Below are positions 714-63,085 of a stretch of 64,000 nt of DNA, in pieces. The notes below the pieces were generated by a model, which saw only the letters and a program-made list of their open reading frames with translations, had not been told where the DNA came from and made no database searches. Position 1 is the first letter of the stretch. Each line of letters begins with the position of its first letter. The position numbers and the translations under genes were made by a program. This DNA comes from a virus: positions 34,694 through 98,693 of IMG/VR virus record IMGVR_UViG_3300034060_000856; one strand, given 5' to 3'.

Positions 714-1049
714 ATGGGAAAATTTGTAATTTCAGAAGAAGAAAAAAAAAGAATACTTAATATGCACCAATCACAGTATTCAAAAAATGTGTTAAAAGAG
801 AATGTTAATGTTAGTAAAGGTAGTATGTTAAATAATGGTAAAACCATTTTAAGTATTGGTAAACCAATGATGGCTGGTAACCCACCGTCAACCGCTGTGT
901 TTATTGAAACTGAAAAAGGAAGTGGAGGAAATTTTGTTTGTAAAGCTCACGAAGCAAAAAAGTATTATCTACAACCAAATAGTACTAACCTACCACTAAC
1001 ACCAGAAGAATCTCAAGCATTATACGATACATATTGTAAGGCTGTTTAA
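714..1049 (+). CDS. hypothetical virion-associated protein with shared N-terminal leader
   Basis: MGKFVISEEEKKRIL...LKE; TATTTAT upstream; terminator downstream. Confidence 0.65.
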   Translation: MGKFVISEEEKKRILNMHQSQYSKNVLKENVNVSKGSMLNNGKTILSIGKPMMAGNPPSTAVFIETEKGSGGNFVCKAHEAKKYYLQPNSTNLPLTPEESQALYDTYCKAV

Positions 1050-1068
1050 TTTAAAATCAAAAAATATT

Positions 1069-1097
1069 AAACCCATCTAAATTCTAGGTGGGTTTTT
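1069..1097 (+). terminator. intrinsic terminator
   Basis: aaacccatcta-aattc-taggtgggttttt hairpin plus U-tract. Confidence 0.7.
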
Positions 1098-1119
1098 AAT
1101 TTATACTATATTTATTTAT

Positions 1120-1662
1120 ATGGCAAAATACATCATTTCAAAAAAACAAACGCTACTACTTGAAGCCACAGATTCAAAAAAGGTTGCAAATAAATTACTT
1201 GCTAGTATTTTAAAAAGATATTATCCATATATTATTGGTGTTGAGATTGAAGAAAAAGATTATTATACAACATTGGTCAGTGCGAATATATACGTTGATT
1301 TAAATAAATTTTACCAAACTACAAACACAACACCACCTTTAGAATACCTTGAATATGATTATTTACTAGATTTATTAGAAGACCCAAGTTCGTATTTGAT
1401 GACTTATGTTGATGAAAAATACAAAAAATCTTTTGCTGCAGTATTTAACCACATTCTTGAAGAAAACCTACAAAAAATATATCAAACATTACCGACTCAT
1501 ATTATTAAGACCAAATTTCAAAATATCCCAGATGATTATGAACCATCAACCATATCACCAGAGTTTATACAAAAATGGAAAGAGGAACTTGAACCGGTTG
1601 ATTTAAGAATAGGGAAATTCATACCAACGGTTAACCTTGAAGAATTGAAAACTTTAAAATAA
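1120..1662 (+). CDS. hypothetical protein with leader variant
   Basis: MAKYIISKKQTLLLE; TATTTAT upstream. Confidence 0.6.
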   Translation: MAKYIISKKQTLLLEATDSKKVANKLLASILKRYYPYIIGVEIEEKDYYTTLVSANIYVDLNKFYQTTNTTPPLEYLEYDYLLDLLEDPSSYLMTYVDEKYKKSFAAVFNHILEENLQKIYQTLPTHIIKTKFQNIPDDYEPSTISPEFIQKWKEELEPVDLRIGKFIPTVNLEELKTLK

Positions 1663-1680
1663 CAAGATATTTATTTTATT

Positions 1681-2421
1681 ATGGGAAAAAAATTAATTAT
1701 AACAGAAGAAGAAAAAAGACAAATAAGAAAGTCATATGGTTTAAATGAAAACTTGCCAGAATTAGATGCCTTCCCAATTGCCGGTGGTAGATATAACATT
1801 GGTTACGATAATGATTGGGATGATTTTGGAAATCCTCGTGGTACCGCAAATTCAGATTATTCTAAAAAACCAACTTATGCTGGTGCTGGAGGACATTTAA
1901 AAGGACATATTGGTGTTGATATCTTTGGATCAAAAGGTACACCAATTTTGGCACCTGTTGATGGTAAAGTAAAGTTTGGTGGTAATGGGCTAACTGTTAT
2001 AATTGAGGATCCAGAAACCGGTTATTCACATTGGTTAGGACATTTAGATAGTAGAACTGTTGATGAAGGTGAATTTGTAACTGCTGGTACTAAAGTCGGT
2101 ACATTAGGTGATTCTGGTAATGCTAAAGGAACCGCACCACATTTACATTATAATATTTATAAAACCTCTAGTGGTTTTTATTCAGGAGAAGATCCTTTGG
2201 ACGTACTAAAAGGTGCTATGGATAAAAAAGGTGAAAACTTAAAAGATAAGGATCTTGATTCTATGGGCGAAAAATTTAAAAAAGCATTTAAAAACTTATT
2301 CAGTGATGAAGAAAAAAATGAAAAGGGTGAAATTAGTGCTAAAGATGAAGAAGATTTATGGGATAAAATGAAAAAGGCTGGAAGTACCTTTTTTAATAAA
2401 ATAGGAAATTTTTTTAATTAA
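1681..2421 (+). CDS. M23-family metallopeptidase (peptidoglycan endopeptidase) with N-terminal leader
   Basis: HIGVD (HxxxD), GTPILAPVDGKV, GNAKGTAPHLHY motifs. Confidence 0.9.
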   Translation: MGKKLIITEEEKRQIRKSYGLNENLPELDAFPIAGGRYNIGYDNDWDDFGNPRGTANSDYSKKPTYAGAGGHLKGHIGVDIFGSKGTPILAPVDGKVKFGGNGLTVIIEDPETGYSHWLGHLDSRTVDEGEFVTAGTKVGTLGDSGNAKGTAPHLHYNIYKTSSGFYSGEDPLDVLKGAMDKKGENLKDKDLDSMGEKFKKAFKNLFSDEEKNEKGEISAKDEEDLWDKMKKAGSTFFNKIGNFFN

Positions 2422-60636: not shown

Positions 60637-60716
60637 ATTAGTTTTTTATTATATTGATATATACTTTAATTTTATGTAAATTTTTAAAAAATAAACATAT
60701 GTAGTATGAAAAATAT

Positions 60717-61184
60717 ATGAAAAAAGGTAAAACTGAAAAGTTAAATGGTTTTAAAACCAGCAAAGTTCACTATGGAACAGTAGATTCTAAAAATTTTAAA
60801 TCACTTTATTTAAACATCCAAACTTGGGTAGAACCAAAAAAGGACACTGAAAATTGGTCGGGGGTTGTCTCAAACACATCAAGGTCAATTAAACACTCTA
60901 TCTATAATAGATTAGATCAAAATTTCCTCAAACAAAATTTTATTGTTGATTTAGATTTAAGAACAAGTGGGATACAAGTAAAAAAGAAGTCGTTTATGAA
61001 TCTTGAGATTACATTATTCTTAAACGATGAAATTGATTTTAAATCACCAACATTAAAAAAAGAATTAAAAAAATTAACAAAAGATATATACTCGGATGTT
61101 TTGGTAAAACACGAATATTTTAAGTTTTATCTTACAAAATACGGAAATTCAAAACCACAAAAAGTAAAAACCGAAAATATTTAG
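60717..61184 (+). CDS. hypothetical protein
   Basis: ORF. Confidence 0.6.
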   Translation: MKKGKTEKLNGFKTSKVHYGTVDSKNFKSLYLNIQTWVEPKKDTENWSGVVSNTSRSIKHSIYNRLDQNFLKQNFIVDLDLRTSGIQVKKKSFMNLEITLFLNDEIDFKSPTLKKELKKLTKDIYSDVLVKHEYFKFYLTKYGNSKPQKVKTENI

Positions 61185-61205
61185 TATTTATAATAAAAAT
61201 TAAAT

Positions 61206-61931
61206 ATGAAAATTTTAGGGCCAAACGATACTGGTAAAGGAATCCTTATTGAGTATGACGCTGGATACATAAATCCAAAGTCTATGGACAACCATTTTAT
61301 AATGGAGTCAAAAAGTTTTATGGATCACTCAAAACCATTTGAATTTTATGCCGTATTACAAAAATACGACACACCCAATAGGAATGGTAGAATCTATCCG
61401 GAAAAAATTTTAAAAAGAGAATCTGAAAATTATAAAAAGATGATTGAGAAGGGCACGGCTCTTTCTGAACTTAATCATCCAGAGTCTTCTCTTATTGATC
61501 TTGATCGTGTTTCACATATGATAACAGATATTTGGTGGGATGGTCCAGTATTATTAGGTAAATTAAAATTATTAACTTCACCTGGTTTTCACGAAAGGGG
61601 TATTGTATCAACAAAAGGTGATATGGCGGCCAACTATCTACGTCAAGGTGTTACGTTAGGTATTTCTTCTCGTGGTGTTGGTTCTTTAAAAAAGGTTGGT
61701 GAACAAAATGAAGTACAAGATGATTTTGAATTGATTTGTTTTGACCTTGTTTCCTCACCATCAACACCGGGTGCTTATTTATTTTTAGATAAAGATGATA
61801 GACACAAGTTTGATGAAAATTTAGAAGAGGAAAAAAGAATGAATATAGAACGAGCCACTGGTATGGAATCTTCCTCTGTTGATAAGACAAAAAAATTAAT
61901 GGATAAATTAACAGCATTTCTTGATAAATAA
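61206..61931 (+). CDS. prohead core protease (T4 gp21-like)
   Basis: NRNGRIYP, ELNHP, VSHMI, GISSRGVGS, FDLVSSPSTPGAY. Confidence 0.93.
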   Translation: MKILGPNDTGKGILIEYDAGYINPKSMDNHFIMESKSFMDHSKPFEFYAVLQKYDTPNRNGRIYPEKILKRESENYKKMIEKGTALSELNHPESSLIDLDRVSHMITDIWWDGPVLLGKLKLLTSPGFHERGIVSTKGDMAANYLRQGVTLGISSRGVGSLKKVGEQNEVQDDFELICFDLVSSPSTPGAYLFLDKDDRHKFDENLEEEKRMNIERATGMESSSVDKTKKLMDKLTAFLDK

Positions 61932-61939
61932 AAAAAAGT

Positions 61940-63085
61940 ATGAAAAAAGTAATTAGACTAACAGAATCAGATTTAACTCGTATTGTTAAACGAGTAATCC
62001 AAGAACAATCTGAACACGTCAAAAACCTTTATAAATCTTGGGCTAATAAAAGGAGTGGAAATCCAGAAAAAGCATTATCAATTATTGATGATGTTTTTAA
62101 ATACCAAAATAAATTATCAAAAAAAGATTTTGCACAATATTCTTCATACGAAGAATTGGTTGGTGATTTAAATAGAATTAAACAAGATGCCAAATCAACT
62201 GACGCCACAAAACTTTATGAGGATAGTGAGTTATTGGTATTGGCGGCAAACACCTGGGAAGCAAGTTGTAAATATGGTGCGGGATCTAAATGGTGTACAA
62301 CCGCAAAAGATAGTGATTCTTATTGGAATAGACATAATCAAACAGGGACCGAGTTCTTTTGGATATTTAAAAATAAACCACAATCTGATCCAAACCACAA
62401 ATTTTCATATCACATTAAATTAAATGGTAAACCAGATTGGTGTAATGCAGTTAATGATTGTATGGGAGATGAAAGATTATCAGGAAACTCATACCCAAAA
62501 AAACATCCAAAATACAATGAAATAATTAATAAATTACAAGAATTTCATAAATCAAGAGATTTAACTGAAAAATTCGCAATAGAACAAAAAAATAAAAAAT
62601 ATATTTCAGATTTAGTAGCTGACAATTATGACTATATAATTTACAGCCTTGATTTAGAAAGAATAATAAAAGAACACTTTGATTTTGCATATAATGATTC
62701 TCTTGATCAGTTTTTAGATTACGAGATTGAAGAAATGGTACCACGTAGTCTTGAATTAGATGACGAAGAGGGTATTTCCCAATTTAAAGAAGATTTGAAA
62801 AAATATCTTTCTGATCAAAAACCAGAATTACCCCAAATTAAATTTACCCAATTTATTGGTGATTTGTCTTATGTTATATATGATACATTAATCAAAAAAT
62901 TTAATATAAACGCTGGTGAACCAATAGAAGAACAAATTGAAGAAAATGATATTAATTTTGAAGTTGTGCTTGATAAAATTGATGATTATGAATTGGACGA
63001 AATTATATCTGAGTTTATCTCAACAGAAGTTAATGATTTAATATATGATATTGCGACCAGATATGCCTTTGATTATCAACCATAA
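61940..63085 (+). CDS. hypothetical protein with leader and ASCKYG...WCT motif
   Basis: MKKVIRLTESDLTRIVKRVIQE; WEASCKYGAGSKWCTT. Confidence 0.6.
   Translation: MKKVIRLTESDLTRIVKRVIQEQSEHVKNLYKSWANKRSGNPEKALSIIDDVFKYQNKLSKKDFAQYSSYEELVGDLNRIKQDAKSTDATKLYEDSELLVLAANTWEASCKYGAGSKWCTTAKDSDSYWNRHNQTGTEFFWIFKNKPQSDPNHKFSYHIKLNGKPDWCNAVNDCMGDERLSGNSYPKKHPKYNEIINKLQEFHKSRDLTEKFAIEQKNKKYISDLVADNYDYIIYSLDLERIIKEHFDFAYNDSLDQFLDYEIEEMVPRSLELDDEEGISQFKEDLKKYLSDQKPELPQIKFTQFIGDLSYVIYDTLIKKFNINAGEPIEEQIEENDINFEVVLDKIDDYELDEIISEFISTEVNDLIYDIATRYAFDYQP

Follow-up and report, generated by a model that had tools for sequence, protein, structure and literature searches.

Leader-bearing genes of the window

The stretch of DNA analysed here (the window, 64,000 nucleotides) makes up the right end of a viral contig of 98,693 bp with a G+C content of about 30% (IMG/VR record IMGVR_UViG_3300034060_000856). 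Roughly one in five genes of the fragment begins with a short peptide from a related set; we call these peptides leaders. The leader is an N-terminal tag that is conserved at the peptide level, is swapped between proteins, ends at a site following the cleavage rule of phage T4 and occurs together with a T4-type prohead protease and capsid protein. The leader-bearing genes and the head genes of the window are listed in Table 1, where, as in the text, an arrow (↓) inside a peptide marks the putative cut point and "w" followed by a number denotes the gene starting at that window position. Counts for the contig refer to 159 crude open reading frames (ORFs) over the whole 98.7 kb. The original prediction, made from the letters of the window, had named leader starts at 714, 1681, 2423, 2956, 4093, 5184, 5738, 6029, 6827, 11911 (-), 16432 (-), 27613, 32713 and 61940, and each proved to be the ATG of a substantial ORF with the N-terminus described. 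The weaker variants that it placed at 1120, 11988, 19197, 21498 and 50520 were likewise confirmed as ATG starts of substantial ORFs.

Table 1. Leaders and head genes in the window (HMM, hidden Markov model; aa, amino acids; for leader-bearing genes the coordinates are those of the leader)
Coordinates	Strand	Protein	Leader class	Leader peptide	Further features
714..800	+	111 aa	C	MGKFVISEEEKKRILNMHQSQYSKNVLKE	
1681..1749	+	246 aa, M23 peptidase	C	MGKKLIITEEEKRQIRKSYGLNE	Pfam Peptidase_M23, residues 75-163, 3e-20
2423..2449	+	173 aa	S1	MKKYILTEE	
2956..3000	+	352 aa	S1	MKIILTESQLKLITE↓	Pfam Phage_lysozyme, residues 58-171; LysM, 308-352
4093..4158	+	154 aa	A	MKKVVRLTEADLTRIIKRVISE↓	HMM 50.3 bits from the start Met; TATTTAT at -25
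5184..5249	+	183 aa	A	MKKDILLSEDQLKKLIYKIIKE↓	HMM 37.6 bits
5738..5764	+	85 aa	S1	MRKIIITEN	
6029..6091	+	101 aa	A	MKTVRLTESDLRRIINRILKE↓	HMM 42.8 bits; TATTTAT at -23
6827..6874	+	167 aa	S1	MRKIIITENQLRLLLE↓	
11849..11911	-	179 aa	A	MKEIILTESDIKRIVKRVLKE↓	HMM 36.1 bits
11988..12029	+	196 aa	B	MVILENLIKKVLKE↓	
16385..16432	-	205 aa	S1	MKFILTESQYKKIIFE↓	
19197..19259	+	739 aa	weaker variant	MKKIDNILFEELNRIKALLNE↓	
21498..21557	+	675 aa	weaker variant	MKNSKLLLEEVFRMRELMGF	
27613..27672	+	143 aa	A	MKVRLTESELVSLIEKIIKE↓	HMM 31.1 bits; TATTTAT at -12
32713..32733	+	259 aa	short leader	MKRLITE↓	compare T4 Alt, MELITE
50520..50570	+	460 aa, conserved	B-like N-terminal helix	MGNRGELEKLIRKIVNE↓	
57860..59713	+	portal, T4 gp20-type			Pfam PF07230, 1.2e-74
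61206..61931	+	prohead protease S77, T4 gp21-type			Pfam PF03420, 80.6 bits against a cut-off of 27
61940..62005	+	381 aa	A	MKKVIRLTESDLTRIVKRVIQE↓	HMM 50.6 bits; between protease and scaffold-like gene
63464..64000	+	scaffold-like protein, 5' part			full length 512 aa, very acidic

A shared N-terminal leader on unrelated bodies, as had been claimed, was borne out by the counts. The core motif h-x-h-(T/S/K)-E (h, hydrophobic) starts no more than 7 residues from the Met in 25 genes, where its frequency inside proteins would predict 0.89 (P ~1e-27). The helix part, h..hh[KR][KR]hh.E, falls among the first 32 residues in 14 genes, with 0.14 expected (P ~1e-23). A loose regular expression for the core gave 42 six-frame matches, about 27 of which sit 2-5 residues past the ATG of a long ORF. 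The genome-wide HMM check that had been suggested agreed with this: a profile of the 10 strongest copies scores 31-54 bits, at initiator positions only, and the next matches, at 3-13 bits, are shorter leader variants, likewise at start codons. Dispersed copies have 55-88% nucleotide identity and show 71 synonymous codon differences over 21 pairs; therefore the peptide is conserved and selected, and reading the leader as a pure DNA repeat was rejected.

Leader classes and anatomy

What had been described as one leader holds as a shared format, not as a single leader, and at least four related classes were distinguished. Class A reads MKK[IV][IV][RK]LTESDLxRIVKRVIxE; of its 10 copies in the contig, 6 lie in the window. 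Class S1 reads MK(I/Y/F)(I/L)(I/L)TE(S/N/E)Q, class C ('EEEK') reads hhI(S/T)EEEKxxIxxxY/H and recurs in a complete relative (G007), and class B reads MNLQExIRRILxEE. The class A logo was drawn from 219 distinct copies in this genome and 131 related viral loci, and 13 of its positions are conserved at 80% or more. Its last conserved position is Glu (97%), preceded at -2 by I, L or V in 97% of copies (I 79%, L 12%, V 6%) with -1 free, and right after the Glu conservation collapses, no residue exceeding 29% at the next position. All 10 copies of this genome begin at Met, as do strictly 198 of the 213 distinct copies in the relatives (131 viral loci); among the remaining 15, most have a somewhat longer pre-sequence (MKIKKNG) ahead of the leader, about 4 lie truly inside the chain and 2 stand at the C-terminus.

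Class B has a further arrangement to the left of the window, at contig positions 21642-25956 (L002:4642-8956), where six leaders of this class (MNLQESIRRILREE) form a tandem array. Over their first 42 nt the DNA hardly differs, even at synonymous sites, and one copy lies in frame within a 243-aa ORF as a fusion. Such near-identity points to a recent origin by duplication or gene conversion, which sets the array apart from the dispersed class A copies.

The class A leader is charged throughout, with 6 basic and 3 acidic residues in 22. A Sec, Tat or lipoprotein signal peptide was rejected, since the leader has no uncharged hydrophobic core of 10 or more residues; ordinary signal peptides are present on other proteins of the window (w8613, w9210, w9773 and w29595). 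A ribbon-helix-helix N-terminal domain was also rejected: five 45-residue N-termini had no Pfam match even at E ≤10, and the sequence past residue 22 is unconserved, so a second helix of that fold after a G-x-S/T turn is not supported. In an AlphaFold model of w61940 (20-sequence alignment) the body has a predicted local distance difference test (pLDDT) score of 80-90, and residues 1-22, at about 50, form a free coil and helix that is undocked. A segment that is conserved yet unpacked in the model is typical of a peptide that would fold on a partner. Foldseek found no match for the w61940 model in the PDB, phmmer against the PDB was blank, and an ESM Atlas feature search with the leader returned sub-threshold viral hypotheticals only.

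Head genes and the cleavage rule

A gp21-like protease at 61206 had been claimed correctly: besides the PF03420 match, w61206 shares 32% identity with T4 gp21 and has the conserved residues His85 and Ser140. It also retains the N-terminal L-I-E of T4 gp21, which is suspected to be an autocleavage site (PMC9026906). A T4-type large terminase is also encoded in the window. A near-identical IMG/VR contig (L013) runs past the end of the contig and contains the rest of the scaffold-like gene followed by a capsid gene, the product of which is a gp23-type major capsid protein of 622 aa (PF07068 at 2e-72). The 512-aa protein is called scaffold-like by its position and composition. Neither it nor w59735 could be accepted as a homologue of T4 gp22 or gp68 (E = 6 and 0.04). 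The alternative that w61940 is the scaffold was rejected, as it is the acidic 512-aa protein downstream that adjoins the capsid gene. PHROGs and Pfam were blank for most proteins of the structural region.

The T4 protease cuts C-terminal to Glu, and T4 gp23 sheds a 65-residue propeptide (PMC5694885). In a pairwise alignment, ...SFLTE65↓A66EIGG of T4 gp23 stands opposite ...SHLINE↓ATSEG of the capsid protein of this phage. Six relatives keep this site; in the form (I/V)-x-E↓(A/S/T) it recurs in seven capsid genes from relatives, where the residues behind it vary, so the T4 rule very likely holds for the protease of this clade. The sites read from the T4 record are I-A-E (internal proteins IPII and IPIII), L-R-E (gp24) and L-T-E (gp23), and the N-termini read from it are MKTYQEFIAE↓A (IPII, IPIII), MAKINELLRE↓S (gp24) and MELITE (Alt). 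In T4 IPIII, residues 4 and 7 target the protein and residues 8 and 10 direct its processing; with Asp in place of the Glu, processing in T4 stops while targeting persists (PMC9026906). The IPIII spacing h(-6), h(-3), h(-2), E(0) corresponds to V16, V19, I20 and E22 of class A, and class B matches it as well (I7, I10, L11 and E13). An N-terminal h..hh.E occurs in 41 of the 159 genes of this contig against 10 expected, and 69 times against 18.7 expected in a complete relative.

The scaffold-like protein (window 63464-64000, continuing in L013:659-2194) ends in FLRMKDLMGKIN before the stop. The RIKxLL motif of the w19197 leader also appears in this C-terminal tail. The tail motif, h.R[IM][KRQ].[LM][ML][GN], occurs 5 times in 156,000 ORF residues and is always terminal, including the N-termini of w19197 and w21498; it may be a second terminal docking peptide that these proteins have in common with the scaffold tail.

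Cargo proteins and exchange of leaders

The bodies behind the leaders (the cargo) are unrelated, with 7% mean column identity among 41 aligned proteins and 5% among 140 non-redundant cargo proteins from relatives. Homologous bodies were found behind different leaders. The orthologues of w61940 bear class A in close relatives and MNIKKIILEEIKRSLFE↓ instead in the more distant L008 and L009; body homologues of w5184 bear S1-type leaders, and those of w11988 bear B, S1 or A-like leaders. The w11911 body is preceded by two class A variants or by none, and a 78%-identical body in a relative bears a different leader. Further swaps on homologous bodies were seen at genome positions 32969, 23967 and 21642, and a relative's homologue of the w2956 lysozyme-LysM protein retains the S1 leader. 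Since homologous cargo bears different leader classes, the leader is a swappable module, and its classes would be functionally equivalent.

Cargo proteins in relatives have a median size of 130 aa, and 93% of the 140 have no Pfam match; the only recurrent known domains there are LysM and PG_binding_1 (6 of 140). The annotated cargo of this genome consists of the lysozyme-LysM protein and two M23 peptidases. The Pfam domains of cargo enzymes begin 50-70 residues past the Met, well behind the leader. In one leader protein to the left of the window (MKIIVKESQIKKIIKEE..., contig 17316-18083; L001), a 22-residue hydrophobic segment directly follows the leader; we liken this protein to the ejection protein gp47 of SPN3US, the mature part of which begins with a transmembrane helix.

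The 460-aa protein w50520 (window 50520-51902) belongs to a family with 690 homologues, some of them fused into proteins of 900-1600 aa, and acidic runs are present. In 40 homologues, 22-62% identical, the N-terminal helix varies but closes with a Glu that at least 90% of them have, and a conserved APIDYGDxPERMDP comes behind it; a cleavage site retained before a mature N-terminus would look like this. The AlphaFold model is confident (predicted template modelling score, pTM, 0.85). VIA-align gave weak zincin-like rows with it (Z ≤5.2), and Foldseek with the model gave nothing; the protein has HELxK where HExxH is expected. A role as a gp24-like vertex protein was rejected, since w50520 has no similarity to the capsid protein.

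Promoters

The heptamer TATTTAT lies within 60 nt upstream of 56 of the 159 ORFs, namely 21 of the 29 leader genes (72%) against 35 of the 130 others (odds ratio 7.1, P = 8e-6). Thus the earlier statement that nearly all leaders lie behind TATTTAT stood as a strong enrichment, and the share was only 21 of 29. The box is usually 10-30 nt ahead of leader genes and, at 10-40 nt, precedes the genes for terminase, portal, protease and the scaffold-like protein as well; it is promoter-like and common to the head genes. At the left end of the contig, 20 small genes have neither a TATTTAT box nor a leader. A full Bacteroidota-type -33/-7 promoter (TTTG...TAnnTTTG) is carried by 14 ORFs. None of these 14 has a leader of class A, S1/C or S2, as had been claimed for host-type promoters; the claim failed for a weak variant, w14830, which has both promoter types.

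The phage and the distribution of the leader

The contig represents about one third of a T4-related jumbo phage of roughly 300 kb, because CheckV-complete relatives measure 269-322 kb, one of them with terminal repeats. Leader carriers of 70 kb are about 25%-complete fragments of the same phage type. A Bacteroidota host is likely because of the TAnnTTTG-type promoters and because one leader-bearing contig was binned in a metagenome-assembled genome (MAG) of a lake Bacteroidetes. In the collection of isolate phages searched, there was no match by DNA, nor by tblastn with the leader or w61940. Leader genes number in the tens per genome, about 9-25% of ORFs. All five CheckV-complete class A carriers (269-322 kb) have an S77 protease and a gp23 capsid protein. 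One relative (G010, IMG/VR, 268,739 bp, CheckV-complete; L141, L143, L148 and L149) has two S77 protease and two gp23-type capsid genes, in sets near 31-35 kb and 233-237 kb, and its second capsid protein is clearly divergent, with the site LVTE↓T.

In 5.8 billion sequences, the leader profile matched at least 6,561 metagenomic protein clusters at E ≤0.01, a lower bound since 8,000 candidates were scored, and among the matched clusters listed no Pfam domain overlies the leader. The top matches bear 2-3 internal copies. Such multi-copy 'polyproteins' were rejected as typical, because extra copies add score and so brought them to the top. The internal copies suggest that the motif may work inside a chain, which would fit, without proving, processing of fused cargo. 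A degenerate DNA pattern for LTESDLxRIVKR was found in at least 119 IMG/VR stretches and, among prokaryotes (one genome each of 185,579 species), at 3 loci only. The sole leader-like copy found in a cellular, non-lake setting (L016:5837-6865) is in a gut MAG, in a 343-aa ORF which adjoins an IS1595-type transposase and contains an internal KQVTRLTESDLHRIVKRSV. In the literature we found no paper containing the motif.

Comparison with known systems

The background for comparison is the capsid-targeting sequences (CTS) and propeptides of T4 IPI, IPII, IPIII, Alt and gp24 (PMC9026906, PMC5694885, PMC3012670). Like the T4 CTS and the other propeptides removed by gp21, which have 6-20 residues, the leaders are N-terminal tags on unrelated proteins, with an MK start, an (I/L)-x-E end and hydrophobic residues at -6, -3 and -2, and the short S1 leaders (MKIIITE↓) resemble that of Alt. 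As in T4, an S77 protease and a gp23 capsid protein are encoded, and the cargo genes are small, variable and clustered. However, the likeness to the T4 CTS (MKTYQEFIAE) is one of format, with no alignable sequence similarity. Class A has 20-22 residues, including a conserved strand part, IRLTESD, that is missing in T4; the leaders stand on tens of genes per genome against about 4-5 in T4, and fall into several interchangeable classes. The cargo is mostly acidic whereas that of T4 is basic. In the most likely reading, the leader, which has the format that T4 requires, would work like the T4 CTS, and it differs from the T4 CTS in length, number of classes, scale and cargo chemistry.

Other systems are less close. 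In the jumbo phages phiKZ, 201phi2-1 and SPN3US a homologous prohead protease trims many head proteins after Glu, and SPN3US gp53 and gp54 are diverged paralogues with identical N-termini (PMC5694885). Their motif, however, is (S/A/G)-x-E with a small residue at -2, where the leader has I, L or V, and their propeptides mostly exceed 100 residues and share no portable tag. Encapsulin cargo-loading peptides offer an analogy only: they too are short and portable and send diverse cargo inside an HK97-fold shell, but they are usually C-terminal and uncleaved, and bind the shell directly with no phage or protease involved. Polyvalent proteins and MuF-type minor head proteins place diverse effector domains in the head, to be injected with the DNA (Iyer et al. 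2017, as cited in PMC7824862). The w50520 family recalls them by its long fused forms and its weak zincin-like resemblance; yet their effectors are fused in one giant protein, whereas here each small cargo has its own tag.

Interpretation and rival explanations

We give a probability of roughly 55% to the leaders being a much-expanded, longer variant of the T4 capsid-targeting sequence. The unrelated leader proteins would then probably be packed into the capsid and cut to size inside it, the fate of a handful of proteins in T4. The leader, predicted to be a short N-terminal strand followed by an amphipathic helix, would be expressed together with the head genes and would dock otherwise unrelated small proteins on the assembling prohead core. 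There the S77 protease would cut past the Glu of the terminal (I/L/V)-x-E, possibly also past the earlier L-T-E, so that the cargo would be freed inside the head and could leave with the DNA at infection. That the whole would amount to a protein-delivery system, as the original prediction had it, is an inference. Its protease-trimmed capsid-targeting part agreed with the in-silico tests (the S77 protease, the capsid protein's site, the Glu at the leader's end, the swaps and the promoter box), and the acidic and peptidoglycan-binding cargo departed from the T4 pattern.

Several observations weigh against the capsid-targeting reading. A disposable propeptide would need neither the length nor the degree of conservation of class A; with double the length of the T4 CTS and much stronger conservation, class A suggests an additional or different partner. 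The recurrent known cargo domains (LysM, PG_binding_1, lysozyme and M23) all bind or cut peptidoglycan, which suggests action in the periplasm and not in the cytoplasm; ejection proteins that act on the envelope or span the membrane do exist, however, in SPN3US and T7 (PMC5694885). Cargo bodies are mostly acidic (median isoelectric point 5.0, 67% below 6), whereas the internal proteins of T4 are basic. One gut Bacteroidaceae MAG, which lacks an S77 protease, has a leader copy in its chromosome, and in rare cases copies are internal or C-terminal. In this AT-rich proteome (I/L/V)-x-E is frequent, so that about 10 of the 159 N-termini fit the looser pattern by chance. The co-occurrence of leader and protease is not independent evidence, because it lies within a single clade, and the position of w61940 in the head module was rejected as support for packaging, not being syntenic in relatives.

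As an alternative, the leader would be a portable docking tag for a common partner other than the capsid (for instance a phage chaperone or translocase, a timing regulator, a complex acting in lysis or in the envelope, or the tail or baseplate), with the h-x-E incidental or belonging to another protease. We regard this as unlikely, though it is the most serious of the rivals. High conservation combined with low pLDDT fits a partner-folding peptide whichever the partner, and the lysozyme-LysM protein, the two M23 peptidases and the LysM and PG_binding_1 proteins of relatives would act in the envelope; the acidic cargo, the gut copy without the protease and the internal and C-terminal copies are in line with it as well. 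It leaves aside the conservation cliff exactly at a Glu that fits the T4 rule, the site of the capsid protein itself, which obeys the same rule, the spacing that agrees with the T4 CTS (PMC9026906) and the promoter box in common with the head genes; moreover, the truly secreted proteins w8613, w9210, w9773 and w29595 have ordinary signal peptides.

The promoter and the 5' coding segment could form a cassette that is a recombination site and provides a good translation start in a host lacking Shine-Dalgarno sequences, the peptide being functionless. The six class B copies left of the window, nearly identical in DNA at synonymous sites too, would fit such a by-product of shuffling or expression, as would the usual distance of 10-30 nt behind TATTTAT and the frequency of MKK and A-rich starts in this genome. 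It is nonetheless improbable, since dispersed class A copies vary synonymously while the peptide is kept, 219 distinct copies from many phages hold 13 positions at 80% or more, internal copies keep the motif with neither Met nor promoter, and classes swap on homologous cargo with the h-x-E end always retained. Least probable of all, and very improbable in our judgement, is one diverged paralogous family with the leader as its best-conserved domain. Neighbouring genes do include some true paralogues, such as the class B array or, in the complete relative G007, the MKY(L/I)ITESQID set, but the bodies include a lysozyme, M23 peptidases and many mutually unalignable ORFans (7% and 5% mean identity), conservation stops abruptly past residue 22, and the same body occurs with different leaders.

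Returning to the capsid-targeting reading, we propose tentatively, as a statement we would hold slightly less likely to be right than wrong, that lake phages of about 300 kb, probably growing on Bacteroidota, load and trim dozens of small, fast-evolving proteins per virion by means of interchangeable tags of 7-22 residues. If so, the T4 way of tagging proteins for the prohead core would scale from about 5 proteins to about one tenth of the genes of a jumbo phage. The value of the leader is as a label for candidate injected proteins: should carrying the tag mean packaging and injection, a single short motif would reveal candidates for host takeover and anti-defence by the hundred in phages that cannot be grown, and would mark the injected effector and anti-defence repertoire of uncultured phages. 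It would also be a ready-made handle for protein loading, adding new and longer targeting peptides for loading proteins into capsids.

Other genes of the window

Two further groups of genes have N-termini in common. Four successive ORFs at window 52048-55702 (+), starting at 52048, 53511, 54867 and 55259, all begin MPLNVD(L/R/K)(L/I)..TG, and two large ORFs at window 33991-37365 (-) both begin MP(T/I)IN(I/V)QSIL. They look like fibre- or spike-like paralogues sharing an N-terminal attachment part that is unrelated to the leader.

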